From: Polyangiales bacterium
GTDB lineage: Bacteria; Myxococcota_A; Polyangia; Polyangiales; Ga0077539
Direction: 5' to 3'
Length of the DNA stretch: 64,000 nucleotides
NCBI GenBank assembly: GCA_041389885.1
Contig: JAWKRB010000006.1
Coordinates: 131,101 to 195,100, forward strand
A program made the position numbers and the translations under genes. Position 1 is the first letter of the stretch, and each line of letters begins with the position of its first letter. Positions 8,311-62,588 of this stretch are shown here, one piece after another. Below the pieces are notes generated by a model that was not told the DNA's origin, ran no database searches, and was given only the letters and a program-made list of their open reading frames with translations.

Positions 8311-11268
8311 ATGGCGAACGAGCTCCGCTTCGATGGAAGGGTCGCGATCGTGACGGGGGCCGGCAACGGCCTCGGGCGGTCGCACGCGTTGCTGCTGGCG
8401 AGCAGGGGGGCGAAGGTCGTGGTGAACGACCTCGGTGGCGCCCACACCGGCGGCGGCCGATCGAGCGCCGCGGCCGACGCGGTGGTCGCGGAGATTCGCG
8501 CGGCGGGCGGCGAGGCGGTGGCGAACTACGACTCGGTCGAGGACGGCGCGAGCATCGTGAAGTCGGCCATCGACGCCTTCGGCCGCGTCGATATCGTGGT
8601 CAACAACGCCGGCATCCTCCGCGACGTCTCCTTCGCGAAGATGACCGAGCAGGACTGGGAGCTCGTCTACCGCGTGCACGTCCTGGGCGCGTACCGGGTG
8701 ACCGCCGCGGCCTGGCCCTACCTGCGCGAGCAGAAGTACGGCCGCGTGATCTTCACCTCCAGCGCCGCGGGCATCTACGGCAACTTCGGCCAGGCCAACT
8801 ACAGCATGGCCAAGCTGGGCGTCGCGGGCTTCGCGAACACCCTCGCCATCGAGGGCCGCAAGAGCAACGTGCTGGTCAACACCATCGCGCCCATCGCGGG
8901 CTCGCGCATGACCGAGACCGTGCTCCCCAAGGAGCTCCTCGACGCCCTCAAGCCCGAGTACGTGAGCGCCCTCGTCGCCGTGCTGGGCCACGAGAGCTCG
9001 GAAGAGACCGGCGGGCTCTTCGAGGTCGGGGGCGGCTTCTACTCCAAGCTGCGCTGGGAGCGCACCGAGGGCGCGACCTTTCGCCTCGGCCGCGCGCTCT
9101 CTCCCGAAGACGTGCGCGGTCGCTGGGGCGACATCACCTCATTCGCGAAGACCACGCACCCCGGCTCCGTCGCCGAGTCGATGCAGAGCATCATGAACAA
9201 CGTCGAGGCCGGGCCCTCGCGCGGCGGCAACGAGTTCATCGACGTCGACGCGGCGCTCGGGTACGAGTTCCCCGAATTCACCTCGCGGCACGACGAGCGC
9301 GACATGGCGCTCTACGCCCTCGGCGTGGGCGCGGGGCGCGACCCCCTCGACGCCGCGGACCTCCGCTACGTCTTCGAGCTGGGCGACGGCTTTCAGGCCC
9401 TCCCGACCTACGCTGTGGTGCCGGTGGTCAACGCGATCCTCGAGATGGGCAAGCGCGGCGAGAGCGCGCCGGGCCTCAATTTCGGCCTCGACCGGGTGCT
9501 CCACGGCGAGCAGTACACCGAGCTCCTCGCGCCCTGGCCCACCAAGGCGAAGCTCAAGCACCGCAGCCGCGTGAAGGCCATCTACGACAAGGGCAAGGGC
9601 GCCGTCGTCGTCAACGAGACCAAGACCTTCGACGAGTCGGGCGCGCTCCTCGCCGTCAACGAGGTCAGCACCTTCGTGCGCGGCGCCGGTGGCTTCGGCG
9701 GCGACCGCGGGCCGGCCTCGGACGTCGCCGTGCCCGAGCGCGCCCCCGACGCCGTGATCGAAGAGAAGACCGCCGAGAATCAGGCCCTGCTCTACCGCCT
9801 CTCGGGCGACTGGAACCCCCTCCACGTCGACCCCGGCTTCGCCCAGGCCTTCGGCTTTCCCCGCCCGATCCTCCACGGCCTGTGCTCCTTCGGCTACGCG
9901 GGCCGCCACGTGCTCCGCGCCTTCGCGAACAACGACGGGCGGCTCTTCAAGAGCATCCGCGTGCGCTTCGCCGACACCGTGCTCCCCGGCGAGACCCTCG
10001 TCACCGAGATGTGGCGCGAGGGTGACCGGGTGATCCTCCGGTGCAAGGTGAAGGAGCGCGACAAGGCCGTGATCACCAACGCGGTAGTCGAGCTGCACCG
10101 CGAGCTCCCGGCCTCGAAGCCCGCGCCCGCGGCCGCTCCGCCGGCGAAGGCCGCGCCCCAGGCCGAGCCCACCAGCGCTGACATCTTCGCGGGGATGGGA
10201 CGCTTCCTCGGCCGCAACGCCGAGATCGCGAAGAAGGTCGGCAAGGTCTTTCAGTTCAAGCTGTCGGCGCCGAACAGCGTGTGGACCGTCGACCTCAAGG
10301 CCAACGCCGTCACCGCGGGGGAGGGCGCGAAGCCCGAGTGCACCCTCGACCTCTCCGACGCCGACTTCATGGACATGTGCACCGGCAAGGCCAACCCCAT
10401 GAAGCTGTTCACCAGCGGCAAGCTGAAGATCAGCGGCGACGTCATGGCGAGCCAGAAGCTCGACTTTCTCCAGAAGATGGACCCGAAGGACGTGCTCGAC
10501 GCGATGCGCGAGCGCGTCGGAGGATCGGCGCCCGCAGCGCCCGCGGCGCCCGCGGCGAGCGGGGTCACGAGCGGCGCGGTCTTCGCGGCGATCGGCGGCT
10601 ACCTCGCGGCGCACCCCGAGGTCGCGAAGTCGGTCGGCAAGGTCTACCAGTTCAGGCTCAGCGACCCCGCGAGCGTCTGGACCCTCGACCTCAAGGCGGG
10701 GACGGTGAGCGAGGGTGAGACGGCGAAGCCCGAGTGCACCCTCGACCTCAGCGACGCAGACTTCATGGCGATGACGGCGGGCAAGGCCAACCCCATGAAG
10801 CTGTTCACCAGCGGTAAGCTGAAGATCAGCGGCGATGTCATGGCGAGCCAGAAGCTCGACTTTCTCCAGAAGATCGACCGCAGCGCGCTCGAGGCCGCCC
10901 CCGCCGCGGCGCCCGTCGCGGCGGCGGCGCCCGCGACCACGGGCCCCGCGGCGGCGGGCGCGCCCGCGATCTTCAAGGCCGTGGCCGAGCGCCTCGCGGC
11001 GAACCCCAGCCTCGCCGAGGAGCTCGGCGCGGTCACGGTGTTCAACGTGCTCGAGCCCGACGGGCAGTGGTCCATCGCGGGCGCGTCGGTCACGCAGGGC
11101 AAGGCGCCCGGCGCGACGGCCTTCCTCTCCCTGCGCGACGAGGACCTGGTGGCGCTCGCGCGGGGCGAGGTCGACGCGCGCTCGCTCTACCAGCAGGGGA
11201 GGCTCCGGGTGGACGGCGACGTTCGCGCGGCGCATCGCATCGGATTCATCAAGGGCACCGCGGGCTGA
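8311..11268 (+). CDS. multifunctional beta-oxidation enzyme (MFE-2-like): SDR dehydrogenase + MaoC-like enoyl-CoA hydratase + three SCP2 sterol-carrier domains
   Basis: N-terminal SDR (TGAGNGLGR Rossmann motif, NNAG, YSMAK). Hot-dog hydratase ([24 protein letters not shown]). Two near-identical SCP2 domains ([18 protein letters not shown]... and [18 protein letters not shown]..., both ending [25 protein letters not shown]) plus a third, divergent SCP2-like domain. ATG at 8311 is preceded by GAGG. Confidence 0.85.
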
Positions 11269-11314
11269 ACGGCGCCAAGACCCTCCAACAACGACTCAAG
11301 CGAAGGAGAATCAA

Positions 11315-12493
11315 ATGGGACGTCGCGTGAATGTCATCGGTGTCGGGATGGTGAAGTTCCAGAAGCCCGGCGCGAGCGACGAGTACAACGTCATGGCGTC
11401 AGGGGCGATCCGCGCGGCGCTCGCCGACGCGGGGGTGCCCTTCGACGCCATCGAGCAGGCCTACGCGGGCTACGTCTTCGGCGACTCGACCTGCGGGCAG
11501 CGGGCGGTCTACGAGGTCGGGCTCACGGGCATCCCCGTGTTCAACGTGAACAACAACTGCTCGACGGGCTCGACCGCGCTGATGCTCGCGCGACAGGCCG
11601 TCGAGGGCGGGCTCGCGGAGTGCGTCCTCGCCGTCGGCTTCGAGCAGATGCAGAAGGGCGCCCTCGAGGCCAAGTGGTCCGACCGGACCAACCCCCTCGA
11701 CAAGCACGTCGGCACGATGAACGACCAGCAGGGCTTCACCCAGGCCCCCGCGGCGGCGCAGATGTTCGGCGGCGCCGGCCGCGAGTACCGCTGGCGCCAC
11801 GGCACCAAGCGCGAGACCTTCGCGCAGGTGAGCGTGAAGGCGCGGCAGCACGCGAGCCGCAACCCCCTCGCGCTCTTCCCCGAGACCCTCACCCTCGAGC
11901 AGGTCATGAGCTCCCCCGAGGTGTTCGACCCGCTCACCCGCTACCAGTGCTGCCCGCCCACCTGCGGCGCCGCCGCGGCCGTCGTGTGCAGCGATGAGTT
12001 CGCGCGAAAGTACGGCATCGCGAACCCCGTCTACATCGCCGCCCAGGCGATGACCACGGACTACGGGTCGAGCTTCGGCGACTCGATGATCAAGATGGTG
12101 GGCTACGACATGGCCAAGGCCGCCGCCGATCAGGTCTACGAGCGCGCGGGCCTCGGCCCCAAGGACGTGCAGGTCATCGAGCTGCACGACTGCTTTACAG
12201 CGAACGAGATCCTCACCTACGAGGCCCTCGGGCTCTGCGGCGAGGGCGAGGCCGAGAAGCTCATCGAGGCCGGCGACAACACCTACGGCGGGCGTTGGGT
12301 GACCAACCCCTCTGGGGGGCTGCTCTCCAAGGGCCACCCCCTCGGCGCGACAGGGCTGGCGCAGTGCACCGAGCTCGTGTGGCAGCTCCGCGGCCAGGCC
12401 GATCGCCGTCAGGTCGAGGGGGCGCGCGTCGCGCTCCAGCACAACCTGGGCCTCGGCGGCGCCTGCGTCGTCACGATGTACCGCCGCGACTGA
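11315..12493 (+). CDS. SCPx-type thiolase (nonspecific lipid-transfer protein thiolase domain; 3-ketoacyl-CoA thiolase)
   Basis: ATG preceded by GAAGGAG. Thiolase motifs [11 protein letters not shown] (active Cys), [28 protein letters not shown]. The upstream part of track ORF 10835..12493 is Arg-rich antisense-type junk. Confidence 0.85.
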
Positions 12494-41278: not shown

Positions 41279-41655
41279 TGGCCACGGTACGATTCCTCAA
41301 CACCGACGACGGGGTGATGGTGGCCGAGGTGCCGCTGGGCACGTCGCTGCTCGAGGCCGCGCAGGCGGTGCACGCCCCCGAGGGCAGCGCCTGCGGCGGC
41401 GTGTGCGCGTGCTCGACCTGTCACGTGCACGTGAAGGTCGGCGGCGCGCTGCTCTCTGAGATGGAAGACGAGGAGAACGACATCCTCGACAAGGCCTTCG
41501 ACGTGGTGCTCACGTCCCGGCTGGGGTGCCAGGCGCGCATCGAGCGCGAGGGCGTCATCGAGGTGGAGATCACCCGCGAGAGCTTCGACACCTACTACAA
41601 CGAGCACCCCAAGGAGCGCCTCGCCCGCGAGGAGCGGCTCAAGGCTCGGTCGTGA
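41278..41655 (+). CDS. fdx: ISC-type [2Fe-2S] ferredoxin
   Basis: CGGVCACSTCHV ... LGCQ Cys pattern. ATG overlaps the hscA stop (TGATG). Confidence 0.85.
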   Translation: MATVRFLNTDDGVMVAEVPLGTSLLEAAQAVHAPEGSACGGVCACSTCHVHVKVGGALLSEMEDEENDILDKAFDVVLTSRLGCQARIEREGVIEVEITRESFDTYYNEHPKERLAREERLKARS

Positions 41656-43195
41656 CCCGCTCGACGCCGAGCTTCTTCATGCGGCTCTGCAGCGTCGAGG
41701 GCTTGAGGCCCAGGATCTCTGCGGCGCCCCCCGCGCCGTAGACCCTCCCGCGGGTGTGTCGCAGCACGGCACGAACGTGCGCGGCCTCGACCTCTTCGAG
41801 GCTGCGCAGGTCGGCGGCGGGCTCGTCGCGCGCTTCGCGGGCGGGGCGAGGGGACGTCTCGGTCGGCTCCTGCGCGAGCGCGGTGAGCTCGGGGCCGGGG
41901 GAGAGGATCATCGCGCGCTCCAGCGCGTTGCCGAGCTCGCGCACGTTGCCGGGCCAGGCGCGGGCGCGGAGTCGAGCCATGCCCTCGGGGCCGACCCAGC
42001 AGCCCCGGCGCCCCGTGCGCCGCCCGAGGTCGCGCAGGAGCACCTCGCAGAGCGCGGGGAGGTCCTCGGGGCGCTCGCGCAGCGGCGGCACGGTGAGCGG
42101 GAACACGTCGAGGCGATAGAACAGGTCGGCGCGGAACCTCCCTTCGGCGACGGCGCGGGCGAGGTCGACGTGCGTCGCGGCGATGACCCTGGCGTCGACC
42201 CGCGCCGTGCGGTCGCTCCCCACGGGCTCGAAGGTGCCCTCCTGGAGCACCCGGAGCAGCTTGGCCTGCAGGTCGAGCGGGAGCTCACCGATCTCGTCGA
42301 GGAGCAAAGTGCCCCCGTCGGCGGTCTGGAACCGCCCGGCGCGGTCGCGGGTCGCGCCGGTGAAGGCCCCGCGCACGTGCCCGAAGAGCTCGCTCTCGAG
42401 CAGCGCGCCGGGGATCGCGGCGCAGTTGATCTTCACGAAGGGGCGCTCGGCGCGGGCGCTCCAGCGGTGAATCGCGCGGGCCAGGTGCTCCTTGCCCGTG
42501 CCCGTCTCGCCGAGGATCAGCACCGGCGTGTCGGTGCGCGCGACCTGCCGCGCGCGCTCGGCGAGCTGGCGCATCGACGGCGCGCTGGAGCGTGACAGCA
42601 CCCCGTCGTCGTCGCCGTGCACCTCTTCGTCGAGCAGCCGCGCGTGCTCCCGCTGCTGCGCGTGGAGGCGGGCGAGGGCGGCCCGCTGCGCGGCGTTCTC
42701 GAGGGCCAGGGCGAGCACCTGCGCGTAGACCTCGACGAGGTCGACGATCGCGGGGGGAAAGACCTCGCAGCGCGTGCGATCGAGGGTGAGCAGCCCGAGC
42801 GGGCCCTCGGAGGTGAACAGCGGCACCACCATGCACGCGTGGCCGGGGGGGAGGTCGAGCACGCCGTCGAAGGGGTCGCCGTCGCCGTCGCGGTGGTCGT
42901 CTTCGGTGAAGGCCCGCGCCCGCCGCGACGCGATGGCCTCGCGCACCGACGGGAACCTCGAGAGCTCCAAGCTCATCGCGCGGACCCTGCGGTCTGCGAG
43001 CAGCCCGCGGGCGGCGCGCACCACGAGCCGCTCTTCGACCAGCTCGAAGACCGTCGCGAGGTCATAGGGCGCGACCTTCGCCAGCCAGTCGAGGCCGCGA
43101 CGGAGGATCTCATCCGGATCGCCGGTGCCCTGGGTGGCCGAGCGCAGCGTCTCGGTGACCGACCGGGACAACGGCTCAAAGGGCTCGGCGCGCAT
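41639..43195 (-). CDS. sigma-54-dependent transcriptional activator with an N-terminal GAF domain (bacterial enhancer-binding protein)
   Basis: AAA+ sigma-54 interaction domain (GETGTGKE Walker A, ESELFGH GAFTGA motif, LLLDEIGEL, GNVREL). N-terminal GAF-like domain. C-terminal helix-turn-helix. Confidence 0.85.
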   Translation of the reverse strand: MRAEPFEPLSRSVTETLRSATQGTGDPDEILRRGLDWLAKVAPYDLATVFELVEERLVVRAARGLLADRRVRAMSLELSRFPSVREAIASRRARAFTEDDHRDGDGDPFDGVLDLPPGHACMVVPLFTSEGPLGLLTLDRTRCEVFPPAIVDLVEVYAQVLALALENAAQRAALARLHAQQREHARLLDEEVHGDDDGVLSRSSAPSMRQLAERARQVARTDTPVLILGETGTGKEHLARAIHRWSARAERPFVKINCAAIPGALLESELFGHVRGAFTGATRDRAGRFQTADGGTLLLDEIGELPLDLQAKLLRVLQEGTFEPVGSDRTARVDARVIAATHVDLARAVAEGRFRADLFYRLDVFPLTVPPLRERPEDLPALCEVLLRDLGRRTGRRGCWVGPEGMARLRARAWPGNVRELGNALERAMILSPGPELTALAQEPTETSPRPAREARDEPAADLRSLEEVEAAHVRAVLRHTRGRVYGAGGAAEILGLKPSTLQSRMKKLGVERVTTEP

Positions 43196-43255: not shown

Positions 43256-43318
43256 TCACCGAGGGGTGGGTGCGCGTCTCGGGCCCTGATTTCGCTTGAA
43301 ATACAGGGGAATTCAACA

Positions 43319-43334
43319 CGGCACGGGAGCTGCT
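43319..43334 (+). promoter_or_regulatory. candidate sigma-54 (-24/-12) promoter for ahpC-ahpD
   Basis: CGGCACGggagCTGCT matches TGGCAC-N5-TTGC with GG and GC 12 bp apart. It lies about 50 bp upstream of the ahpC ATG and is divergent from the enhancer-binding-protein gene. Confidence 0.5.
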
Positions 43335-43385
43335 CAAGGGGAGTTCGACCTCGCAGATCGCGGGGCGCAACCAGGAGAACAGACC

Positions 43386-43916
43386 ATGCTGAGTGTTGGA
43401 GACCGCCTGCCTTCTTTCTCGCTCAAGGCCGCCGTGAGCCTGGAGCCCGGCAAGGAGTTCGCGGACGTCACCGATGGGTCCTACGAGGGCAAGTGGCGGG
43501 TGCTCTTCGCGTGGCCGATGGACTTCACGTTCATCTGTCCGACGGAGATCATCGAGTTCGGCAAGGCGCACGGTGATTTCGCCGACCGGGACGCGCAGCT
43601 GCTGGGGATGAGCACCGACACCCACCACGTGCACCTCGCGTGGAGGCGACACCACGACGGGCTGCGGGACCTCCCCTTTCCCATGCTCGCCGACACGAAG
43701 CGCGAGCTCTCGAGCGCCCTCGGGATCCTGCACAAGACCGACGGCGTGTGCCTCCGCGCGACCTTCATCGTCGACCCGCAGGGGGAGATCCGCTGGGCCA
43801 GCGTCAACGACCTGAGCGTGGGGCGGAGCGTGCCCGAGGTGCTCCGGGTGCTCGACGCGCTGCAGACCGACGAGCTCTGCCCGTGCAACTGGCAGAAGGG
43901 CGAAGCCACCCTGTGA
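43386..43916 (+). CDS. ahpC: peroxiredoxin, AhpC/TSA family (2-Cys)
   Basis: FTFICPTE peroxidatic Cys and C-terminal resolving CPCNW. AGGAGA ribosome-binding site. Start is inside track ORF 43296..43916. Confidence 0.85.
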   Translation: MLSVGDRLPSFSLKAAVSLEPGKEFADVTDGSYEGKWRVLFAWPMDFTFICPTEIIEFGKAHGDFADRDAQLLGMSTDTHHVHLAWRRHHDGLRDLPFPMLADTKRELSSALGILHKTDGVCLRATFIVDPQGEIRWASVNDLSVGRSVPEVLRVLDALQTDELCPCNWQKGEATL

Positions 43917-43926
43917 GGCGCTGACC

Positions 43927-44448
43927 ATGGAGAACCTCGACGCGCTCCTCGATCGCCTCCCCGACGCCGCGAAGGACCTGCGGCTCAACGTCAAGGCCGT
44001 CCTCGGCGAGAGCTCGCTCACGCCCGCGCAGACCTGGGGCACCGCCGTCGCGTCCGCCATCGCGGCGGACCACCCGGAGCTCCAGCGGGCGGTGACCGAG
44101 GCCGCCCGCGCGCGCGTCGAGGCGCCGGTCCTCGACGACGCCGTCGCCGCCGCGGCGATCATGGGGATGAACAACGTGTTCTACCGGTTTCGGCACATGG
44201 TGCCGGGCTACGAGCAGATCCCCGCGCGCCTGCGCATGAACCGCCTCGGGCGCCCCGCGACGAGCCGCGTGGACCTCGAGCTCTTCTCCCTCGCGGTGAG
44301 CGCGATTCACGGCTGCGAGGCATGCGTGCGCTCGCACGAGAAGGTCGCGCTCGAGGGCGGCCTCTCGCAGCAGCAGGTGTTCGACGCCGTGCGCATCGCC
44401 GCGGTGCTGCACGGCGCCGCGGTCGCGCTGCGCGGCGCGGCGTCCTGA
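43927..44448 (+). CDS. ahpD: alkylhydroperoxidase AhpD-family protein (carboxymuconolactone decarboxylase fold)
   Basis: HGCEACVRSH (CxxxH-type) motif. Located directly downstream of ahpC. Confidence 0.8.
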   Translation: MENLDALLDRLPDAAKDLRLNVKAVLGESSLTPAQTWGTAVASAIAADHPELQRAVTEAARARVEAPVLDDAVAAAAIMGMNNVFYRFRHMVPGYEQIPARLRMNRLGRPATSRVDLELFSLAVSAIHGCEACVRSHEKVALEGGLSQQQVFDAVRIAAVLHGAAVALRGAAS

Positions 44449-44469: not shown

Positions 44470-45507
44470 CTACCGCACGCGCCTGCGCTGCAGGGGCCCC
44501 GACGCGACCACCTCAAAGGCCGTGCCGGGGATCGCCTTGAGCTGCTCGAGGTCGTGGTCGTTCCAGCGCCGGTCGGTGGCGCCGCTGACGTACCAATTTC
44601 CGCCCGTGTCGGCGACGAACATCCCGTACCGCTGCAGCGCGACCGCGATGACCCGCGCCTGACCCCGCAGCGACGCCGTGGGGTAGCTGGCCTTGAGCCG
44701 CATGCGCAGCCCCATGGGGGGCGCCTCGGCGTCGTGGTCGTCGCCGCCGGGGTGGGTCGCCGGCGCGATCCACGCGGCCTGCGTGTGCTCAAAGGTCACC
44801 CTGAGCGCGTGGCGGATCTCGCCCTGCATCACCTCGTCGAAGCGCGCGAGGCCGGGGAGAATCGGGAGCCCCGCCTGGTCGCAGGAGGTCCACTCTCGCG
44901 GGCGCAGGCGGTTGCTTCGGAGGTCGAAGGTCGCGCCCGACCCCGCCGCCCAGCCCGCCCCGTCTCGCACCGCGTGGTAGAGCTCGAAGAGCCTGCACGA
45001 GCCCTGCTGCACCACGAGCACGTGGTGGTCGCGGCCCACCTCGATGGGCGCGTCGGGCGGGATCGGGTAGGGCCCCGGGTCGCTCTCGTCGCCGTACTCC
45101 GTGAAGCGAATGGGCACCCGCGCCTGCGTCGCCGGGACGACCACGTAGGGGATGCCGTAGTCAGGGTTCGACCCGAAATCGGGGTGGAGGTTCGGGTCGC
45201 CGTGGCGCTGGATGTTCGCGATGTAGCGGTCCGAGAGGGGGTCGACGGGGTCGCGGGAGACGTCGCGGTTCCACGGGTTGTCGGAGGGGAAGACCTCGCA
45301 CCCGCCCACGGTCGGCCGCGCGTCGGCGGCGACGGTCACGGGGATGTTGGCGATGGCCGACTCCGACGGCTCGCCCGAGGGCTCGACGCTCTCGGGCTGC
45401 GCGACCTGCGTCGTCTCGGGGGCCATGCGCTGGAGGATCCGCGAGGGGGAGCACCGGCACGAGGCCAGGCAGGGGAGCGACAAGAGGGCGAGGCGCGCGA
45501 GGTTCAC
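44470..45507 (-). CDS. hypothetical secreted lipoprotein
   Basis: Signal LSLPCLASC. No recognisable domain. Confidence 0.4.
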   Translation of the reverse strand: MNLARLALLSLPCLASCRCSPSRILQRMAPETTQVAQPESVEPSGEPSESAIANIPVTVAADARPTVGGCEVFPSDNPWNRDVSRDPVDPLSDRYIANIQRHGDPNLHPDFGSNPDYGIPYVVVPATQARVPIRFTEYGDESDPGPYPIPPDAPIEVGRDHHVLVVQQGSCRLFELYHAVRDGAGWAAGSGATFDLRSNRLRPREWTSCDQAGLPILPGLARFDEVMQGEIRHALRVTFEHTQAAWIAPATHPGGDDHDAEAPPMGLRMRLKASYPTASLRGQARVIAVALQRYGMFVADTGGNWYVSGATDRRWNDHDLEQLKAIPGTAFEVVASGPLQRRRVR

Positions 45508-45528: not shown

Positions 45529-47001
45529 TCACCGCGCGACGAGGCGCCGCAACGCGCCGATCGCCGCGCGGCCGTCGTCGGTGCGCGCGGCGAGGGCCGC
45601 GAGGGTCGCGGGGAGGCTGAGCGCGAGCGCGAGGTGCAGCGCGAGGTCGAGGGCGAGGGAGCCCGTGCGCGTGGCGCTCCCCGCGACGCCGAGGAGCAGC
45701 GCGGCGGCGGTGATCGCGCCGAACGCCGCGTAGTCGTATCGGACCGGCAGCACCCTGCGCGACGCGGCGTGGAGGCCCACCGCGTAGACCAGGAACACCA
45801 CCGGGCTCACCACCAGCGCGCCGCGAAATCCCCAGCGCTGCACGAGGAACCAGCCCACGACGACGTCGAGCGCCGCGACCAGGGGCTCGAACCACGCGAG
45901 GGCTCGCGCGTCGCCGCCCACGAGCAGGCCGTTGCGAAAGAACTCGCCCATCTCCCGCAGGGCGTACCCGATGGCGACGGAGGGGATCACCCAGCGCGCG
46001 GCGGAGAACGAAGGCCCAGCGACCAGGGACACCAGCTCGGGCGCGAGGAGGGTCAGCCCCAGCGCGGCGCTCGCGTACAGCCCGAAGAAGAGCGTCGCGG
46101 CCCGGGCGTAGCGCGCGGGGCCGTCAGGCTCCGCCCAGACCTCGTACATACGCGCGCCCCAGGCGTTGCGCAGGGGGCTGCCGAGGCTGCTGCTCACCTG
46201 CACCCCGAAGCGAACTCCGAGGGACCACACGCCGACCTCTTCGAGGGTGCAGAACGCGTTGAGGTGCACCGCGCGGGTGTGGCCCAGCGCGATGAGGGCC
46301 AGGGCGCCGGGGAGCAGCGGCCACCCGAAGCGCAGGAGCCGCGCGAGCACGGCGGCGTCGAAGGCGCGCCCGTTCTCTCGGAGCGTGAGGACGCCCAGGG
46401 CGACGGCGTAGAGCGCCGAGGTCACCAGGGATGACAGGCAGATGCCCGCCACGCCGAGGTTCATCGGCACGACGAAGGCGACGTTGAGCGCGAAGCCCAG
46501 CGCGGCGCGGGAGAGGGTCCACGCGACGAAGGCGCCCGCTCGGCCGTCGGCGCGGAGGATGGCGAGGGGCACCTCGAGCACGCCCTGAAAGGCGACGGAG
46601 GCGAAGGTCATTCGCAGCACGTCGGCGCGCGACGCGTCGCGGATCCAGACGCGCGCGAGGGCGGGCGAGGCGAGCACGCCGAACGCGCTGACGAGGGCGC
46701 CCAGCACGCAGAGGGCGAGCACCGTGGTGGAGATCACCCGGCGCCGCTCGGCGGCGTCGGCCGCGGCGCGCACGTTTCGAATCACCGGGTCGGCCAGGGC
46801 CGCGCTGAAGAGCGTCACCGCGGTCAGGTCCGCGGTGTCGAGCAGCTCGAGCACGCCCAGCTCCCGCGCGCCGAGGTGGTGCGCGTAGATGGGCACCATC
46901 ACGAAGCCGAGCACCCGCGTCACCACCATCGCGAGCACGTACGCGCTCGCGTCGCGCGCGGCGCCCGCGCTCGGTGTGTTCGCGGGCGGTGTGGGGGTCA
47001 C
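45529..47001 (-). CDS. MOP-superfamily oligosaccharide flippase (Wzx-like polysaccharide biosynthesis protein)
   Basis: About 490 aa with 12-14 TM helices and Wzx-like loop spacing. Confidence 0.65.
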   Translation of the reverse strand: MTPTPPANTPSAGAARDASAYVLAMVVTRVLGFVMVPIYAHHLGARELGVLELLDTADLTAVTLFSAALADPVIRNVRAAADAAERRRVISTTVLALCVLGALVSAFGVLASPALARVWIRDASRADVLRMTFASVAFQGVLEVPLAILRADGRAGAFVAWTLSRAALGFALNVAFVVPMNLGVAGICLSSLVTSALYAVALGVLTLRENGRAFDAAVLARLLRFGWPLLPGALALIALGHTRAVHLNAFCTLEEVGVWSLGVRFGVQVSSSLGSPLRNAWGARMYEVWAEPDGPARYARAATLFFGLYASAALGLTLLAPELVSLVAGPSFSAARWVIPSVAIGYALREMGEFFRNGLLVGGDARALAWFEPLVAALDVVVGWFLVQRWGFRGALVVSPVVFLVYAVGLHAASRRVLPVRYDYAAFGAITAAALLLGVAGSATRTGSLALDLALHLALALSLPATLAALAARTDDGRAAIGALRRLVAR

Positions 47002-47153
47002 GGCCGCACAGTCCTAAAAAACTCCACCCCCGCGCAAGGCGAAGCCACCCGCGGGCTGCGGGGAGAATTCCGCGGTTTCTGCGCGCACGGCGTTGACCCA
47101 GACCGTGCGCGCCGGGGACACTGGGCCTTCATAGGCTGCATCGGAGGTTCCTG

Positions 47154-49319
47154 GTGTCGTTTCGTCCTCGCTTGGTGTTGTTCGCCGCCCTCGCGGCGCT
47201 CATGAGCTGCTCAGACTCGTCTTCTCCCACCTGCTCGGAGCCTCGGCAGGCGTGCGGCGCGACGTGCGTTGACCTCTCGGTCGACCCGTCCAACTGCGGC
47301 GCTTGCGGCACCGCCTGCGGCGCTCGCTCGGTGTGCGTGGCGGGTCGGTGCCAGCTCAACTGCCCGACCGGCCAGCAGCAGTGCGGCATGACGTGCACCG
47401 ATGTCGCGACCGACCGCGCCAATTGCGGCGGCTGCGGCATGGCCTGCCCCTCGGGGCAGGTGTGCGCCAACGGCGCGTGCTCGCTCAGCTGCGGGAGCGG
47501 CCTCGCGACGTGCCTCCCGGGGTCGGGCGATTTCGACGCGTCGACCTCCGAGCCGTACTGCGCGAACACCCGCGTCGACCGCGCCAACTGCGGCTCCTGC
47601 GGCACCCGCTGCGACGTGGGCGAGTTCTGCGTGCAGGGGCGCTGCGTGCTCGTGTGCCCCGAGGGGCAGTCGAACTGCAGCGGTCGCTGCGTCGACCTCC
47701 AGACCGACTCGACCAACTGCGGCACCTGCCGAACGCCCTGCGGCACGGGCTTCACCTGCAACGGGGGCCGCTGCCGCTCGACGGCCTGCTCCGCCGGCGC
47801 GACCACCTGCAACGCGCAGTGCGTCGACCTGATGACCGACCCGTACAACTGCGGACGGTGCAGCTTTCCGTGCCTGAACGGGCAGGGCTGCCGCGCGGGC
47901 ATGTGCGTGCGGGTGTGCGCGCAGTCGCAGCTCACCTGCGGCGACGAGTGCGTCGAGGGACAGTCTGACGTGCGCAACTGCGGCGCCTGCGGCAACCGCT
48001 GCGCCGCGGGCACGGTGTGCCAGGCGGGGGCCTGCGTCACGCAGTGTCAGACCGGGCAGATGCTCTGCGGCGGGCAGTGCGTGAGCCTGAGCACCGACCG
48101 CGCCCACTGCGGCGGCTGCGGCATGGCCTGCCCGGGCTCTCAGGTGTGCACCGGCGGCATGTGCGCGGCGAGCTGCGCGACGGGGCAGACGCTCTGCGGG
48201 TCGACCTGCACGAACACCGACTTCGACCGCGGCAACTGCGGCGCGTGCGGCACGGCCTGCGCGGCCGGTCAGCTGTGCGCGGGCGGTCGCTGCGTCGCCG
48301 CGGCGCCGGTGGACGTGACCTGCGGCACGGGCCTCACGCTCTGCGGCGGCCTCTGCGCCGACACGCGCTCGAACAATCGGCACTGCGGCGCCTGCGGCAT
48401 GGCGTGCGCGTCGGACCGCACGTGCGTGAACGGCGCCTGCGTCGCGCCCTGTCCCGAGTCTCAGGGCCGCTGCGGCGGCACCTGCACGGCGCTGCAGAGC
48501 GATCGCATGAACTGCGGCGGCTGCGGCAACGTGTGCATCACGGGACAGAACTGCGTGAGCGGCACGTGCCAGTGCCCCGCGGGGCAGCAGATCTGCGGCA
48601 TGGCCTGCGCGAACGTGCTGAACGACGCCACGAACTGCGGCTCCTGCGGCAACCGCTGCGCCACCGGGCTCACGTGCTCGGCGGGTCGGTGCGTGATGAC
48701 GCCGACGACGCGGTACCAGCGCGCGGCGACGACGACGGGGATCACGTTCATCGACGCCTGCGCGGCCCCTGGGGCGCAGACGATCCTTGCCCTCGCGGAC
48801 GGCGCGTCGGCGCAGGTGCAGCTGCCCTTCCCGGTGCGCTTCTGGGCGACCGATGTCGGCGCGATGCAGATGGTGAACGTCGCGGCGTCGGGGTGGCTCA
48901 ACCTGCGCGGCGGCACCGAGAGCAACCGCACGGGGACCATTCCTTCGACGACGCTGCCCAACGGCGTGATCGCGCCGTACTGGCGCGACGCGCGCACCCG
49001 CAGCGGCGTCTGCGTGGCGACGGTGGGCACCGCGCCCAACCGCCGCTTCGTGGTCGAGTGGAACGACGCGGGGGAGATCACCACCGCCGACGGCGGCGCC
49101 GCGGTGCTCTCGTCGACGCACTACACCTACGAGGTGATCGTGTCGGAGGGGACCAACACCATCGACTTCGTCTACCAGCGCCTCGACGGCGTGCGGCAGG
49201 CGACCGTCGGGATGGAGAACATCACCGGCACCCCCGGGATCTCGGGATGCCCCGACCCCTCCGTGTACGCCTGCACGCCCTACCCTGGCTTCGTCGCCCG
49301 GTTTGAGCCGATCCCGTGA
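47154..49319 (+). CDS. cysteine-rich repeat lipoprotein (about 14 tandem approximately 38-aa repeats with NCGxCGxxC core) plus a conserved approximately 200-aa C-terminal domain
   Basis: Lipobox ALMSCS. Repeats of the form C-x4-6-C-x-x-C-x-D-x4-D-x-x-NCG-x-CG-x-x-C-x-x-G-x-x-C-x-x-G-x-C. The C-terminal domain is shared with the next gene and with the partial gene at 3..1370. Confidence 0.75.
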   Translation: MSFRPRLVLFAALAALMSCSDSSSPTCSEPRQACGATCVDLSVDPSNCGACGTACGARSVCVAGRCQLNCPTGQQQCGMTCTDVATDRANCGGCGMACPSGQVCANGACSLSCGSGLATCLPGSGDFDASTSEPYCANTRVDRANCGSCGTRCDVGEFCVQGRCVLVCPEGQSNCSGRCVDLQTDSTNCGTCRTPCGTGFTCNGGRCRSTACSAGATTCNAQCVDLMTDPYNCGRCSFPCLNGQGCRAGMCVRVCAQSQLTCGDECVEGQSDVRNCGACGNRCAAGTVCQAGACVTQCQTGQMLCGGQCVSLSTDRAHCGGCGMACPGSQVCTGGMCAASCATGQTLCGSTCTNTDFDRGNCGACGTACAAGQLCAGGRCVAAAPVDVTCGTGLTLCGGLCADTRSNNRHCGACGMACASDRTCVNGACVAPCPESQGRCGGTCTALQSDRMNCGGCGNVCITGQNCVSGTCQCPAGQQICGMACANVLNDATNCGSCGNRCATGLTCSAGRCVMTPTTRYQRAATTTGITFIDACAAPGAQTILALADGASAQVQLPFPVRFWATDVGAMQMVNVAASGWLNLRGGTESNRTGTIPSTTLPNGVIAPYWRDARTRSGVCVATVGTAPNRRFVVEWNDAGEITTADGGAAVLSSTHYTYEVIVSEGTNTIDFVYQRLDGVRQATVGMENITGTPGISGCPDPSVYACTPYPGFVARFEPIP

Positions 49320-49345
49320 CCCCCGCATCGAGCAAGAGCAAGACC

Positions 49346-51577
49346 ATGACGTCACCCCTTCACTTCTGGATTCGCCCATGCGCGCTCGCGCTGGCCGCGG
49401 CGTTCGCGGTCGGCTGCGAGGCCGAGGTCCGTCGCTTCGGCGGCGCGGACGCGAGCGCGACGCCCACCGACACCCCCGAGGGCAACGCGTCGTCCTGTGA
49501 CGGCGGTGAGGCGCTCTGTCGCGGCAACTGCGTCGACCTCTCGAGCGACCTGGCCAATTGCGGTCGCTGCGGCAACAGCTGCCAGGCGGGGTACGTCTGC
49601 ATCTCGGGTCAGTGCACCGTCGACTGCCCCAAGGGGCAGGTCCGCTGCGGCACCACCTGCGCGAACCTGATGACCTCGCAGGACAACTGCGGGACCTGCG
49701 GGAGTTCGTGCCCGAGCGGGAGCGTCTGCTCGGGCGGGCGCTGCGCCGTGGAGTGCGAGGCGCCCTACCTCGCGTGCGACTTCGTCGAGGCGCCGGCGGT
49801 GCGCGACGCGGGCGTGACCGACTCCGGCGTGCGCGACGCGGGCGTGACCGACTCCGGCGCGCGCGACGCGGGCGTGGCCGACTCCGGCGTGCGCGACGCG
49901 GGCGTGACCGACTCCGGCGCGCGCGACGCGGGCGCGGCCACGCTCCGCTACTGCGTCGACCCCTCCGTCGACGAGCGTAACTGCGGCGGCTGCGGCATGG
50001 CCTGCCCCTCGGGGCAGATCTGCCGCGACAGCACCTGCGTCCTGCAGTGCGGCCGATCGCAGACGATGTGCGGCAGCCGCTGCGTCGACACCGACAGCGA
50101 CGTGTCGAACTGCGGCGGCTGCGGCATGGCCTGCACCGACGCGCAGCGGTGCGTCTCGGGCACCTGCACGGGCACGAGCTGCCCCACCGGCACCACGCAG
50201 TGCGGCACGCAGTGCATCGACACCCGCTCTGACGCGCAGAACTGCGGCATGTGCGGCTCGGTCTGCGCGGCGCCTCAGTTCTGCCGCAACGGCGCCTGCG
50301 AGCTCGTGTGCCCCATGGGCCGCGCGGCGTGCGGCGGCCGCTGCGTCGACACGATGAACGACGGGCTGAATTGTGGGATGTGCGGCACGGCCTGCGGCGC
50401 TGGGCAGGTCTGCAACGCGGGCATGTGCACGCTGACCTGCCCCATGGGCTCGGCCGCGTGCGACGGCCGCTGCGTCGACCCCACCACCGACCGCGCGAAC
50501 TGCGGCGGCTGCGGCATGGCCTGCGGGGCCGGACAGGTCTGCACCGGCGGGCGCTGCGCGGGCGCGTGCGCCGCGGAGCAGACGCGCTGCCTCGCGGGCT
50601 GCACCAACACCGCGTTCGACCCCAACAACTGCGGCGAGTGCGGCTTCGTGTGCGGCGCCGGCTTCGGCTGCGTGGGCGGGGCCTGTCGCCCCCTCGCGGG
50701 CGTCGACGCGGGGGCGTGCGCGCCCCCGGCGGTGCTCTGCAACGGGAGCTGCATCGATCCCCGCAACGACAACGCCAACTGCGGCATGTGCGGCCGACGC
50801 TGCGGCGAAGACCGCACCTGCGCGGGCGGCGTCTGCGTCGAGGCCTGCGCGCCGGGCCAGGTGCGCTGCGGCAGCACCTGCTCGGTGATCGACAGCGACG
50901 GGATGAACTGCGGCGCGTGCGGCAACGCCTGCCCGGTGGGGCAGGTCTGCTACATGGCGATGTGCACCACCGCGCCGCCCGTGCGCTATCGCCGCGCGAC
51001 GAGCACGGCTGGGATCACCTTCTTCAACGCGTGTAGCGCGCCGGGGAGCCAGCGGGTGCTCGCGGGCTCTGACGACGGATCCGTGCGGGTGGCGATCCCC
51101 TTCGCCTTCAGGTTCTGGGCCGAGAACATCGCCGCCGGCGCGATGATGAACGTGACGTCCAACGGCTGGATCGGCGTGCCGCCGAACACCGCGGCGAGCC
51201 TCAGCGGGACCATCCCCTCGGTGAGCACTCCGAACGGCGTGCTCTCGCCGTACTGGACCGACAACTACAACCGCACCACGGGCCAGTGCATCGCGACCAC
51301 GGGGTCGGCGCCCTTCCGCCGCTGGGTGATGCAGGTGGATGACGCGGCGCACTGCTGCTCCACCGCGGCCGGCGTGAACAACACCTACGAGGTGGTGATC
51401 CACGAGAGCACCAACAACATCGACTTCATCTACCAGTCGATGACCGGCGCGCGAAACGCGACGGTGGGTCTCGAGAACCAGACCGGCACGATGGGCATCT
51501 CGGGCTGCCCGACGGCGACCTCGTACACCTGCACGCCGATGGCGAACTCGGTCGTTCGCTTCGAGCCCTCGCCCTGA
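49346..51577 (+). CDS. cysteine-rich repeat lipoprotein, paralog of the preceding gene, with a tandem RDAGVTDSG(V/A) insert
   Basis: Signal MTSPLHFWIRPCALALAAAFAVGC. Same NCGxCG repeat architecture and C-terminal domain as 47154..49319. The upstream stop overlaps the alternative GTG at 49316. Confidence 0.75.
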   Translation: MTSPLHFWIRPCALALAAAFAVGCEAEVRRFGGADASATPTDTPEGNASSCDGGEALCRGNCVDLSSDLANCGRCGNSCQAGYVCISGQCTVDCPKGQVRCGTTCANLMTSQDNCGTCGSSCPSGSVCSGGRCAVECEAPYLACDFVEAPAVRDAGVTDSGVRDAGVTDSGARDAGVADSGVRDAGVTDSGARDAGAATLRYCVDPSVDERNCGGCGMACPSGQICRDSTCVLQCGRSQTMCGSRCVDTDSDVSNCGGCGMACTDAQRCVSGTCTGTSCPTGTTQCGTQCIDTRSDAQNCGMCGSVCAAPQFCRNGACELVCPMGRAACGGRCVDTMNDGLNCGMCGTACGAGQVCNAGMCTLTCPMGSAACDGRCVDPTTDRANCGGCGMACGAGQVCTGGRCAGACAAEQTRCLAGCTNTAFDPNNCGECGFVCGAGFGCVGGACRPLAGVDAGACAPPAVLCNGSCIDPRNDNANCGMCGRRCGEDRTCAGGVCVEACAPGQVRCGSTCSVIDSDGMNCGACGNACPVGQVCYMAMCTTAPPVRYRRATSTAGITFFNACSAPGSQRVLAGSDDGSVRVAIPFAFRFWAENIAAGAMMNVTSNGWIGVPPNTAASLSGTIPSVSTPNGVLSPYWTDNYNRTTGQCIATTGSAPFRRWVMQVDDAAHCCSTAAGVNNTYEVVIHESTNNIDFIYQSMTGARNATVGLENQTGTMGISGCPTATSYTCTPMANSVVRFEPSP
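49798..49940 (+). repeat. about 4.5 copies of a 30-bp coding tandem repeat (gcgcgacgcgggcgtgaccgactccggcgt)
   Basis: Seen directly in the sequence. Encodes (V/A)RDAGV(T/A)DSG repeats inside the second cysteine-rich protein. Confidence 0.8.
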
Positions 51578-59627: not shown

Positions 59628-62588
59628 TCACTGGAACTCGACGATCATTTCCTGGCTGGGCGCGCCGCAGGTCTGCGTGTTCACGCCGCCCCAGTTGGGG
59701 TTGCTCCCGCCGATGCAGGGGCGAACGATGTAGCCCGAGGGGCAGTTGTTGCCGCTGCAGGTGCTCGGCGGATTGAGCCAGAGCTCCCCGCTGTAGCGGC
59801 TGCCGCAGAGCGACCAGTTGTTGCCGTCGCAGGCCATGTTGAAGTCGGTGCCGCTGCGGATCGCCGCCGCGAGGCCGTTGACCACGGTGGGGTTGGTGCA
59901 GCTCACACCCGTGGTGTTGAAGGTCCCGCGAATGGTCACGCGGGTGTACGAGTTGGTGAGGGTCGCACGCCAGTCGTTCCAGGCCGTGCACTGGGCGCCG
60001 TCGGAGCCCTGCCCCGACACGAAGCTCTGCTGGTAGCGGTTCGAGGTGACGACGCACGCGCCGTTGGCGCACCGGCCGCTCGAGCACGTGACCCCGCAGG
60101 CGCCGCAGTTGCTGGCGTCGGTCTGGGTGTTGACCTCGCAGCCGTTGCTCGGGTTGTTGTCGCAGTTGCGGAACGCGCCGGTGCACGAGCCGACCGCGCA
60201 CGACCCCGCGGTGCAGGCCGCGACCGCGTTCGCGAGCGTGCAGCGGTTGCCGCACGCGCCGCAGTTGTTGACGTCGGTCCCGCCGTTGACCTCGCAGCCG
60301 TTGGCGGGGTTGTTGTCGCAGTCGCGGAAGGCCCCGGTGCACGCCTGGAGCTGGCACGCGCCGCCGGTGCACGCCGAGGACGCGTTGGCGAGGCTGCAGA
60401 CCCGGCCGCAGGAGCCGCAGTTCGCGGCGCTGGTGTTCGTGTTGACCTCGCAGCCGTTGGCGGGGTTGTTGTCGCAGTCGCGGAAGCCGGCGTTGCACAC
60501 GAAGGAGCAGGCGCCCGCGGCGCAGACCGGCGAGGCGTTCGCCGGCGCGGTGCAGGCCGTGCCGCACAGGCCGCAGTTGCGCGGGTCGCTCTGCGTGCTG
60601 GTGCAGCTCCCGGCGCACTCGGTCAGCCCCGTCGCGCAGGTGGCGCGGCAGACGCCGCCCGAGCAGACCTGGCCCGCGCCGCAGGCGTTCCCGCACGCGC
60701 CGCAGTTCGCCCGGTCGGTCTGGGTGTTGATCTCGCAGCCGTTGAGGGGGCTCATGTCGCAGTTGGCGAAGCCCGTGTTGCAGGTCGTGAGGGCGCACGC
60801 CCCGGCGGTGCAGGCCGAACCGCCGTTCGGAGACTGGCACGCGAAGCCGCAGGCGCCGCAGTTGGTCACGCTGTCGAGGCGGGTCTCGCAGCCGTTGGTC
60901 GCGTTGCCGTCGCAGTCGCCGAAGCCCGCGTCGCACTGAAACGAGCATCGCCCCGCGCAGAAGGGCGTCGCGTTGGCGGGGCGGGCGCAGGCGTTGCCGC
61001 AGGCGCCGCAGTTGGCGGGGTCGTTGGCGAGGTCGCGGCAGCTCCCGCCGCAGTCCGACTGACCGGCGACGCAGGTCGCGACGCAGGTCCCCGCGGCGCA
61101 GCGCTGCCCCGCGCCGCAGGTGTTGCCGCAGGCGCCGCAGTTGGCGTTGTTCGCGCTGGTGTTCACCTCGCAGCCGTTCGCCGGGTTCATGTCGCAGTCG
61201 GCGAAGCCCGCGTTGCACGCCCCGAGGGCGCAGCCCGAGCTCACGCAGGTGCCGCTCGCGTTCGCGAAATTGCACCGCACGCCGCACCCGCCGCAGTTGG
61301 TGAGCCCGTCGAGGGAGGTCTCGCACCCGTTCGACGCGTCGCCGTCGCAGTCGCCGAAGCCGCGGTTGCAGGTGATGCCGCAGGCGCCCGCGGCGCAGAA
61401 CGCGACGCCGTTCGCGGGGGTCGGGCAGGCGTTGCCGCAGCCGCCGCAGGCGGCGACGTCGGTGTTGGGGTCGCGGCAGGTGCCGCCGCAGTTCTGGGTC
61501 CCCATCTGGCAGCTCGCGGCGCAGGCGCCGGCGGAGCAGACCTGCCCCGCGGCGCAGGCCGCGCCGCAGGCGCCGCAGTTGGCGCGGTCGGTCTGGGTGT
61601 CGGTGCAGGCGGTGCCGCACGCGGTCTGTCCCATCGGGCACGAGATCACGCAGGCGCCGGCCTCGCACACCTGCCCCGCGGCGCAGGCCGTGCCGCAGGC
61701 GCCGCAGTTGGCGCGGTCGGTCTGGAGGTTCGCGCACACGCGCGGCCCCGTCATCGGCGCGCAGGTGGTGAGGCCCTGCGAGCAGGTGAGCCCGCAGGCG
61801 CCCATCGAGCAGACCTCGCCGCTGTCGCAGACGTTGCCGCAGGTGCCGCAGTCTCCGCGGTCGGTCTGCGTGTCGACGCATCGACCCGAGCACACCGTCT
61901 GGCCCGTCGGGCAGCGCACCTGGCAGTTGCCCGCCACGCACGCCTCACCGCTCGCGCACGCGCGCCCGCAGCTCCCGCAGTTCTGCGCGTCGTTCTGGGG
62001 GTCGGTGCAGAGCCCGCCGCAGGCCTGCTGCCCCGCGGGGCAGTTCGCGACGCAGGCGCCGCGCTCGCAGATCTGACCCGCCGCGCAGGCCGTGCCGCAG
62101 GCGCCGCAGTTCGTGCGATCGATCTGGGTGTTCGTGCAGAAGCGGTCGCTCCCGCCGTCTCCGCCGCCCGTCGCCGCGCACTGCGCGAGGCCGGGGCCGC
62201 ACTCGAGGGTGCACTGGCCCATCGAGCAGACCAGGCCGGCGCTGCAGGCCGCGCCGCAGGCGCCGCAGTTGCCGCGGTCAGTCTGGAGGTCGACGCAGCG
62301 CCCGGCGCACGCGGCCTGCCCGGTCGGGCACGCGGGCTGGCACATCCCCGCCACGCACACCTCGGCGCGCTGGCACGCGCTCCCGCAGGCGCCGCAGTGG
62401 TCGGGGGAGGCCTGCGTATCGACGCAGGCTCCTCCGCAGGCGGTCTGCCCCGCGGTGCAGCTCACGTCGAGGGACGCGTCCATGCCGCCGTCCGAAGAAG
62501 TGCCGCCGACGACCGCGGAGTCTGTGCATCCCGCCGCGAACATCGCGGCGGCGAGTATCCAAGCGCATCTCAGTCTCATGAACCTCAC
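59628..62588 (-). CDS. giant cysteine-rich repeat lipoprotein (986 aa) with two alternating repeat types (NCGxCGxxC and DCDxNxxNGCE) and a distinct C-terminal domain
   Basis: Lipobox AAMFAAGC. About 20 NCGxCG-type repeats interleaved in the second half with (F/G)xDCDxNPxNGCE repeats. The C-terminal approximately 150 aa is unrelated to the C-terminal domain of the 47-51 kb pair. Confidence 0.75.
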   Translation of the reverse strand: MRFMRLRCAWILAAAMFAAGCTDSAVVGGTSSDGGMDASLDVSCTAGQTACGGACVDTQASPDHCGACGSACQRAEVCVAGMCQPACPTGQAACAGRCVDLQTDRGNCGACGAACSAGLVCSMGQCTLECGPGLAQCAATGGGDGGSDRFCTNTQIDRTNCGACGTACAAGQICERGACVANCPAGQQACGGLCTDPQNDAQNCGSCGRACASGEACVAGNCQVRCPTGQTVCSGRCVDTQTDRGDCGTCGNVCDSGEVCSMGACGLTCSQGLTTCAPMTGPRVCANLQTDRANCGACGTACAAGQVCEAGACVISCPMGQTACGTACTDTQTDRANCGACGAACAAGQVCSAGACAASCQMGTQNCGGTCRDPNTDVAACGGCGNACPTPANGVAFCAAGACGITCNRGFGDCDGDASNGCETSLDGLTNCGGCGVRCNFANASGTCVSSGCALGACNAGFADCDMNPANGCEVNTSANNANCGACGNTCGAGQRCAAGTCVATCVAGQSDCGGSCRDLANDPANCGACGNACARPANATPFCAGRCSFQCDAGFGDCDGNATNGCETRLDSVTNCGACGFACQSPNGGSACTAGACALTTCNTGFANCDMSPLNGCEINTQTDRANCGACGNACGAGQVCSGGVCRATCATGLTECAGSCTSTQSDPRNCGLCGTACTAPANASPVCAAGACSFVCNAGFRDCDNNPANGCEVNTNTSAANCGSCGRVCSLANASSACTGGACQLQACTGAFRDCDNNPANGCEVNGGTDVNNCGACGNRCTLANAVAACTAGSCAVGSCTGAFRNCDNNPSNGCEVNTQTDASNCGACGVTCSSGRCANGACVVTSNRYQQSFVSGQGSDGAQCTAWNDWRATLTNSYTRVTIRGTFNTTGVSCTNPTVVNGLAAAIRSGTDFNMACDGNNWSLCGSRYSGELWLNPPSTCSGNNCPSGYIVRPCIGGSNPNWGGVNTQTCGAPSQEMIVEFQ

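Follow-up and report, generated by a model that had tools for sequence, protein, structure and literature searches.

A conserved tandem pair of predicted lipoproteins with Stig1-type cysteine-rich repeats and NIDO-like C-terminal domains in a Polyangiales bacterium

TraA of Myxococcus xanthus is a kin-recognition surface receptor that has a PA14 head and a MYXO-CTERM tether and is encoded beside its partner, TraB (PMC3325183, PMC6626042). The authors of the TraA work proposed that its cysteine-rich repeats are a rigid stalk by which a lectin-like domain is displayed at the surface of the cell (PMC3325183). In the Bacteroidota, RemA is a mobile surface adhesin that is needed for gliding (PMC5445135). 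Here we describe two adjacent genes, A and B, from a 64,000-nucleotide (nt) stretch of a Polyangiales bacterium (assembly GCA_041389885.1, contig JAWKRB010000006.1, positions 131,101 to 195,100). This whole stretch is referred to as the window, and all positions are given in its coordinates. The two products combine a lipoprotein signal, a stalk of cysteine-rich repeats and a C-terminal NIDO-like head domain. Each of the two modules falls within a large family that already has a name, and neither the repeats nor the head are new. What appears to be new, as judged by comparison of genomes, is that A and B form a conserved two-gene unit in which a type 1 gene is followed by a type 2 gene.

Our preferred reading, which we hold tentatively and at slightly less than even probability, is that A and B are a pair of lipid-anchored disulfide rods that present NIDO-like binding heads and act together. 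The pair would be anciently duplicated and is probably co-transcribed, and each lipoprotein would be attached to the membrane through its N-terminal lipid. From the anchor, 10-11 Stig1-type units of the MXAN_6577-like family, locked by disulfides, would extend as a stiff rod with a NIDO-like beta-sandwich at its far end. In such a stalk-and-head presentation the rod would set a constant spacing between membrane and head, and the head may bind a matrix or cell-surface ligand, either polysaccharide or protein. Direct support comes from the domain composition, the family assignments and the conservation of the lipobox, of the pair and of the repeats unit by unit. We infer that the proteins are disulfide-bonded, rigid and exposed at the surface, that they bind a ligand and that A and B cooperate. 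The genes had been singled out in an earlier reading of the DNA (the original prediction) as encoding surface or extracellular proteins, and the adhesin or matrix role suggested there remains a best guess.

The features of the two reading frames are as follows.

47154..49319, plus strand: gene A (type 1), 721 amino acids (aa), with a lipoprotein signal, 11 Stig1-type units and a NIDO-like C-terminal domain.
49316..51577, plus strand: gene B (type 2), 753 aa counted from a GTG that overlaps the stop of A; alternative ATG start at 49346.
47144..47148, plus strand: Shine-Dalgarno-like GGAGG before the GTG of gene A, read from the sequence.
47154..47210, plus strand: signal peptide of A, lipobox L-M-S-C with Cys19, from an alignment of 14 sequences.
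49346..49417, plus strand: probable signal peptide of B, lipobox A-V-G-C with Cys34 counted from the GTG, from the N-terminus alignment and the sequence.

The two co-directional reading frames, 721 and 753 aa long, were confirmed at exactly the coordinates originally given. The GTG start of gene A has its GGAGG 6 nt upstream. The stop of A and the GTG of B share 4 nt (GTGA), as had been claimed. The in-frame ATG at 49346 would give B a signal peptide of 24 aa rather than the 34 aa that follow from the GTG, and fits better with the 17-24 aa found in 13 homologues. The overlap is thus plausible but uncertain, because from the ATG the signal peptide of B would have a typical length. Neither a promoter nor a terminator consensus turned up around the pair. 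A and B are 42% identical overall and rich in cysteine, with 93 Cys (12.9%) in A and 88 (11.7%) in B. The G+C content of the window is ~72-75% and that at third codon positions (GC3) is 0.95 in both genes.

Long open reading frames (ORFs) also lie on the minus strand opposite A and B (47129..48046, 48461..49120 and 49948..50949), and these likewise have a high GC3 of 0.92-0.97. One could therefore suppose that the plus-strand ORFs are artefacts of high G+C and that the antisense ORFs (47129..48046, 48461..49120 and 50275..50949, with a GC3 of 0.92-0.96) are real, but we consider this extremely improbable. The high GC3 of the antisense ORFs is explained by the third codon positions that they share with the real genes, and it is A and B that have strong family matches, orthologues along their full length (40-81% identity) and a domain model of pLDDT (predicted local distance difference test) 93. 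The antisense ORFs were rejected as genes on these grounds. Comparable antisense ORFs are present opposite a third repeat gene of the window, at 60037..62076 (plus strand). High-GC3 antisense ORFs of this kind, over A, B and the third repeat gene, may mislead gene callers.

Bacterial lipoproteins are recognised by a lipobox, [LVI..][ASTG..][GAS]C, at the end of the signal peptide. This motif was found as LMSC in A, as AVGC in B and as AAGC in the product of the third repeat gene (59628..62588), acylation itself being a prediction. The lipobox was present and the lipid-anchor Cys was invariant in 14 of 14 aligned homologues, in agreement with the earlier description of A and B as lipoproteins. 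Both proteins end directly with the head domain and are without a C-terminal sorting tag. An anchored, extracytoplasmic location is supported by the conserved lipoprotein signals, the disulfide-type Cys pattern and the extracellular relatives of the C-terminal domain.

Between the anchor and the head lies the cysteine-repeat stalk.

47229..48698, plus strand: stalk of A, aa 26-515, with 11 tandem units of 43 aa and 8 Cys, from the unit hidden Markov model (HMM) and a motif spacing of 43.
49493..50971, plus strand: stalk of B, aa 60-552, with 10 tandem 43-aa units and a low-complexity linker after unit 2.
49793..49934, plus strand: tandem DNA repeat in B, 30 bp x 4.7 copies with 94% matches, from Tandem Repeats Finder.

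The repeat unit is 43 aa long and contains eight Cys in the pattern C-x6-C-x3-C-x9-C-x2-C-x3-C-x5-C-x4-C. In A, unit 3 is preceded by a short spacer and is missing its first Cys pair. The estimate of ~14 repeats of ~38 aa in the original prediction is replaced by these counts of 11 and 10. With an HMM of the unit, the six-frame translation of the window yielded 11 units for A, 10 for B and 16 for 59628..62588 (minus strand), and none outside these three ORFs. The tandem DNA repeat encodes (RDAGVTDSGV)n, the linker that joins units 2 and 3 of B. In type 2 orthologues the linker after unit 2 varies, with a motif spacing of 61-110. The orthologue of B in the closest related genome (L001) has, at the same site, a linker array that is longer and of other sequence, suggesting that the linker of B expands and contracts fast. 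The positions of the 8-Cys pattern are invariant along the whole stalk across orthologues that are only 41-51% identical. Identity to L001 is 87% in the stalk versus 71% in the head for A, and 81% versus 75% for B; on these alignments the stalk appears at least as conserved as the head.

The repeats matched two named families. With Pfam Stig1 (PF04885; gathering threshold 24.1 bits), A scored 192.3 bits (E 1.7e-57, 11 stretches) and B 159.7 bits (E 2.5e-47, 10 stretches), and the product of 59628..62588 also lies above the threshold. With NCBIfam NF041328, "MXAN_6577-like cysteine-rich protein" (curated cut-off 100 bits), A, B and 59628..62588 scored 362.3, 300.9 and 355.5 bits, placing all three repeat proteins in this family. 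By its own terms, the original prediction would have been refuted by a match of the repeats to a well-characterised family of known function, and this is half the case: Stig1 and NF041328 are named families, the function of which in bacteria is not known. Among 8000 scored candidates, a search with full-length A found at least 4029 proteins at E <= 1e-10. Named homologues were called "MXAN_6577-like cysteine-rich protein", "Stigma-specific protein, Stig1" or "hypothetical protein", and two multi-domain proteins "streptogramin lyase"; the repeat homologues stem from Polyangiales, Myxococcales or "Deltaproteobacteria" metagenome-assembled genomes (MAGs). The suggestion of a lineage-specific expanded family does not hold in view of this number of proteins across Myxococcota-type genomes, with many different C-terminal domains. 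Elsewhere the arrays are fused to PF04151 PPC, the PF11617 MopE-type motif, PF13385, PF06739, PF00415, PF08450, protein kinases and others. This fusion to many alternative domains suggests that the array is a generic, presenting module.

In the full-length AlphaFold model each unit consists of two short beta-hairpins (mean pLDDT 75; predicted template modelling score, pTM, 0.36). The combination of low pTM and moderate pLDDT is what would be expected of such a model for an extended chain or rod of small domains. A PDB sequence search with full-length A gave no match. From the eight invariant Cys per unit, an even number, together with the extracytoplasmic targeting, the hairpin model and the homology to a secreted plant domain, we infer that the Cys form disulfides. 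The array would act as a stiff spacer. A 2026 preprint on cysteine-rich repeats was set aside, as it deals with other repeats.

Two other uses of the array were weighed. The Cys arrays might bind metals or buffer redox stress, in a metallothionein-like or MopE-like manner, with the head being incidental. The Cys content of 12-13%, the invariant CxxC-type spacing and a pair of AhpC/CMD genes ~3 kb upstream are in line with this. We regard it as very unlikely, since the repeats share homology with a secreted domain of plants, STIG1, place eight Cys per unit in a small beta-hairpin fold (in the model) and are extracytoplasmic; the repeat sequences showed no ligand pattern of His/Asp/Met, and no metal-binding family was listed among the Pfam and NCBIfam matches of A or B. 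Membership in Pfam Stig1 raises a second option, that A and B are released signalling ligands or toxins analogous to plant STIG1 peptides. Plant STIG1 proteins are small, single-domain secreted ligands. Unlike these, A carries an 11-fold array, a lipid anchor and a large head, and the pair had no match to the PADLOC defence models or to toxin models, making release as a ligand highly improbable.

The head domains, which would be the binding part of the anchored rods that we favour, are located as follows.

48699..49316, plus strand: head of A, a NIDO-like beta-sandwich, aa 516-721, domain HMM 290 bits.
50972..51574, plus strand: head of B, NIDO-like, aa 553-753, domain HMM 292 bits.

The heads of A and B (~200 aa) are 49% identical, and the AlphaFold2 model of the A head is all-beta (pLDDT 93.3, pTM 0.91), bearing out the earlier claim of a conserved beta-rich C-terminal domain common to both proteins. 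A word-indexed search with the head returned 14 relatives only, the best of which was 71% identical. One of these relatives and a third copy of the domain in the window (786..1367) gave weak pointers to Pfam NIDO (PF06119). The gathering threshold of this family is 25 bits; the heads of A and B do not reach it, and the 786..1367 copy scored 16.7 bits (E 0.0079), also below the threshold. Pfam NIDO was matched by 5 of 17 aligned head homologues, at best with E 1.3e-6, and what is matched is mostly the initial third to half of the Pfam model. The head carries a characteristic PFxF...NG...APxWxD pattern. Invariant in the domain are D, R and E/Y positions, namely D97, R115, E150 and Y159 in domain numbering. 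An FtsJ match in the Pfam scan of the two heads was dismissed as meaningless.

The number of representative proteins detected in an exhaustive profile search with the head alignment was 24,378 at E <= 1e-3, falling to 15,680 at E <= 1e-10 and to 1,838 at E <= 1e-30, totals that may include some repeat-only proteins, as the profile held ~45 positions of a Stig1 unit. When the top matches that were fetched were re-tested with a head-only HMM, all 147 of 147 contained the domain, in 1-14 copies each and with a median protein length of 1429 aa; Cys-repeat arrays were also present in only 15 of them. Five proteins (P0021, P0046, P0016, P0023 and P0029) scored 44-78 bits with Pfam NIDO on segments that are covered by the head HMM. 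Because the head profile covers the same segments that pass Pfam NIDO, a case of transitive homology, the head appears to be a divergent bacterial branch of the NIDO-like superfamily that lies outside the Pfam family by threshold. This supplies an assignment for a domain that had originally been thought unassignable. Sampled head matches also carry S8 peptidase, fn3, RTX, TSP3, Laminin_G_3, CarboxypepD_reg and SdrD-B modules, a company typical of proteins that are secreted or lie at the surface. Many of the proteins found with the profile are giant, extracellular and carry multiple copies. Against PDB sequences, the head profile found a single protein, the RemA adhesin from Flavobacterium johnsoniae (PDB 8gl6, chain D), matched over residues 25-192 at E 7e-18; no NIDO structure was among the PDB search results. 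Foldseek searches of PDB with the head model and the full-length model gave nothing better than E 0.1.

The type 1 then type 2 pair is conserved. The closest match among the genomes scanned was L001, a Lake-Mendota-type Polyangiales MAG, which is 81% identical in the best segment and has the gene order A, B, hemW, as in the window. The pair was found in 5 of 6 related metagenomic contexts (L001, L025, L026, L027/L028 and a JGI contig), with junctions of -4 to +30 nt; the exception, L029, has a single gene. In the distant contexts, where homologues are 41-48% identical, type 1 proteins are ~675-685 aa and type 2 proteins ~703-775 aa long. In type 2 proteins the linker that follows the lipid Cys (C-x-x-x-V-R-R...) is longer, and unit 2 is followed by a DAG-rich spacer. 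In L025 the type 2 gene (10055..12382) encodes a B-like stalk (43% identity), but its head is replaced by an unrelated domain of ~250 aa. Among the 24 loci found through the repeats, the head domain was present in L001 only. Some 20 proteins of ~760-785 aa among the homologues found with A may carry the head variant of L025.

These data bear on whether A and B act together or are simply redundant paralogs in tandem, each acting by itself (with ligand specificities that differ, for instance) and forming no complex. Their common architecture at 42% identity, the lone gene in L029 and the exchanged C-terminal domain in L025, which indicates that heads can be exchanged independently, all speak for independent action. 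However, the type 1 to type 2 order and the short or overlapping junctions have been kept in five of six contexts at 40-50% identity, and redundant duplicates are usually lost or dispersed at such divergence. Independent action is, on this evidence, somewhat unlikely, though a reading to be taken seriously, and we retain the proposal of a pair that acts together.

The surroundings of the pair were examined for a functional clue. Two neighbouring genes are given as context and are not proven parts of the system.

45529..47001, minus strand: Wzx-type polysaccharide flippase-like gene, transcribed divergently from the pair; Pfam Polysacc_synt E 3.6e-13.
44470..45507, minus strand: conserved 345-aa protein that adjoins the flippase.

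A flippase homologue occupies the same position in L025 (47% identical), the only one of the 6 other contexts with flippase synteny. The 345-aa protein, which had no Pfam, NCBIfam or PDB sequence match, is 71.5% identical to the syntenic gene of L025 (4539..5486) and is probably an enzyme of an undescribed family. It is more conserved in L025 than the flippase or protein A (48%), and has a possible lipobox, LASC. Just upstream of the flippase block, at 41639..43195 (minus strand) and 43290..44448 (plus strand), lie a gene for a sigma-54 activator with a GAF domain and a pair of AhpC/CMD genes (alkylhydroperoxidase-type), with no established link to A and B. The other genes near the pair in the window are of the housekeeping type (HemW, RND efflux, Hsc/Isc, AhpC, Acc). 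The search for an operon-based functional clue found none, the neighbours being housekeeping genes and variable between genomes.

The flippase and the 345-aa protein, which adjoin the pair in two genomes, are of interest for a further reading, in which A and B are lipoproteins of the envelope that face the periplasm and bridge or organise it, for instance through contacts with peptidoglycan or with a machine for polysaccharide export. Exposure at the surface does not follow from a lipobox alone. We nevertheless consider this reading unlikely: the relatives of the head are found in giant secreted and surface proteins, including a gliding adhesin secreted through T9SS (type IX secretion system), the flippase synteny is confined to one other context, and a rod of 10-11 units would probably be long relative to the periplasm.

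Two further ORFs of the window each share one module with A and B.

59628..62588, minus strand: third repeat lipoprotein, 986 aa, lipobox AAGC, 16-17 units (43 + 52 aa), Stig1 162.3 bits.
786..1367, plus strand: third NIDO-like domain, at the C-terminus of ORF 3..1370, a gene cut by the window edge; HMM E 3e-49.

In the third repeat lipoprotein the 43-aa units are mixed with 52-aa units of the form 'C-N-x-G-F-x-D-C-D-x-N-P-x-N-G-C-E'. Its C-terminus (~140 aa, Cys-containing) is unlike that of A and B, with no family match and no match to the head HMM, and the protein is related to A and B through the stalk only. The domain of ORF 3..1370 is 24% identical to those of A and B (E 3e-8 and 9e-13), and Cys repeats are absent from the part of this ORF that is visible in the window. 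Its high-GC3 codon phase switches near 150 and 500, amounting to two apparent frameshifts, which suggests either a pseudogene or assembly indels. With the frames corrected by hand, the N-terminal part had no Pfam match; it resembles repeated beta-rich units. In total, the repeats occur in three ORFs and the head domain in three ORFs of the window, and both modules are found together solely in A and B. Homology among the C-terminal domains therefore extends to A, B and 3..1370 and leaves out 59628..62588. Of the four paralogs originally counted in the 64 kb, A and B stand as such, whereas 59628..62588 shares the repeats only and 3..1370 the head domain only.

Several points weigh against the picture of anchored rods presenting binding heads. 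A Pfam scan of the heads of A and B returned no NIDO match even at E <= 10, and their link to NIDO, as traced through profiles, appears to be a transitive one. Even in animals NIDO is without an established function (bioRxiv 10.1101/2020.07.27.223107). We found no literature on MXAN_6577 or on bacterial Stig1 or NIDO proteins, and no experimental datum for bacterial members of the two families. A surface orientation and a periplasm-facing one are not distinguishable from sequence. The flanking genes differ between genomes apart from the one flippase block, and a tandem arrangement is by itself no proof that A and B interact.

A more specific form of the proposal is that A and B are a heterodimeric surface stalk, disulfide-locked and of fixed length, whose two NIDO-like heads would cross-link exopolysaccharide or neighbouring cells. 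We consider this form rather improbable. If true, the pair would correspond in bacteria to the nidogen-type matrix linkers, to which it may be related by evolution, and would give the NIDO fold its first testable function. By itself the locus contributes two further members to a named and very large family of Myxococcota, and its wider interest is limited to the conserved pairing and to the link between the NIDO superfamily and RemA. Through the head it is tied to a superfamily that is very large in bacteria (>15,000 representative clusters at E <= 1e-10) and includes the N-terminus of a studied gliding adhesin. The conserved pair, with a stalk that is conserved unit by unit, offers a compact two-gene system for testing the function of both modules. 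It is also in keeping with a theme known in myxobacteria from TraA, the presentation of recognition domains on cysteine-repeat stalks, which is of relevance to matrix building, social behaviour and predation.

Among known systems, the closest by family is NF041328, the MXAN_6577-like proteins of Myxococcota, for which A, B and the third repeat protein score at least 3x the cut-off and whose name is used in the NCBI annotation of Polyangiales MAGs. That family is defined by the repeat region only, so the NIDO-like head and the gene pairing lie outside its definition, and the name carries no function. Pfam Stig1, a family of plants, aligns with the 43-aa unit at model positions ~36-83 of 85, 10-11 times per protein. 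Unlike in plant STIG1, the motif in A and B is a tandem array on a lipoprotein, and a common function is not implied. With the NIDO domain of nidogens, alpha-tectorin, MUC4 and SNED1, the heads of A and B share a beta-rich and extracellular nature, as predicted here, and the sequence pattern. RemA, a cell-surface adhesin, resembles the pair in its match to the NIDO-like domain. In contrast, it is a 1436-aa T9SS substrate of Bacteroidota in which the domain is N-terminal, and it has no Stig1 array and no lipobox.

TraA resembles the pair in more respects: a distal recognition domain on a stalk of cysteine-rich tandem repeats, an envelope tether, an adjacent partner gene and an origin in Myxococcota. 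However, the topology is opposite, with the head of TraA at the N-terminus and its MYXO-CTERM anchor at the C-terminus, and TraA differs further in its PA14 head, its TIGR04201 repeats and its OmpA-like partner, TraB. Neither A nor B had a PA14, TIGR04201 or TIGR03901 match in Pfam and NCBIfam at E <= 0.1. The pair is not a member of the TraA system, and TraA is, by analogy, its best functional counterpart.

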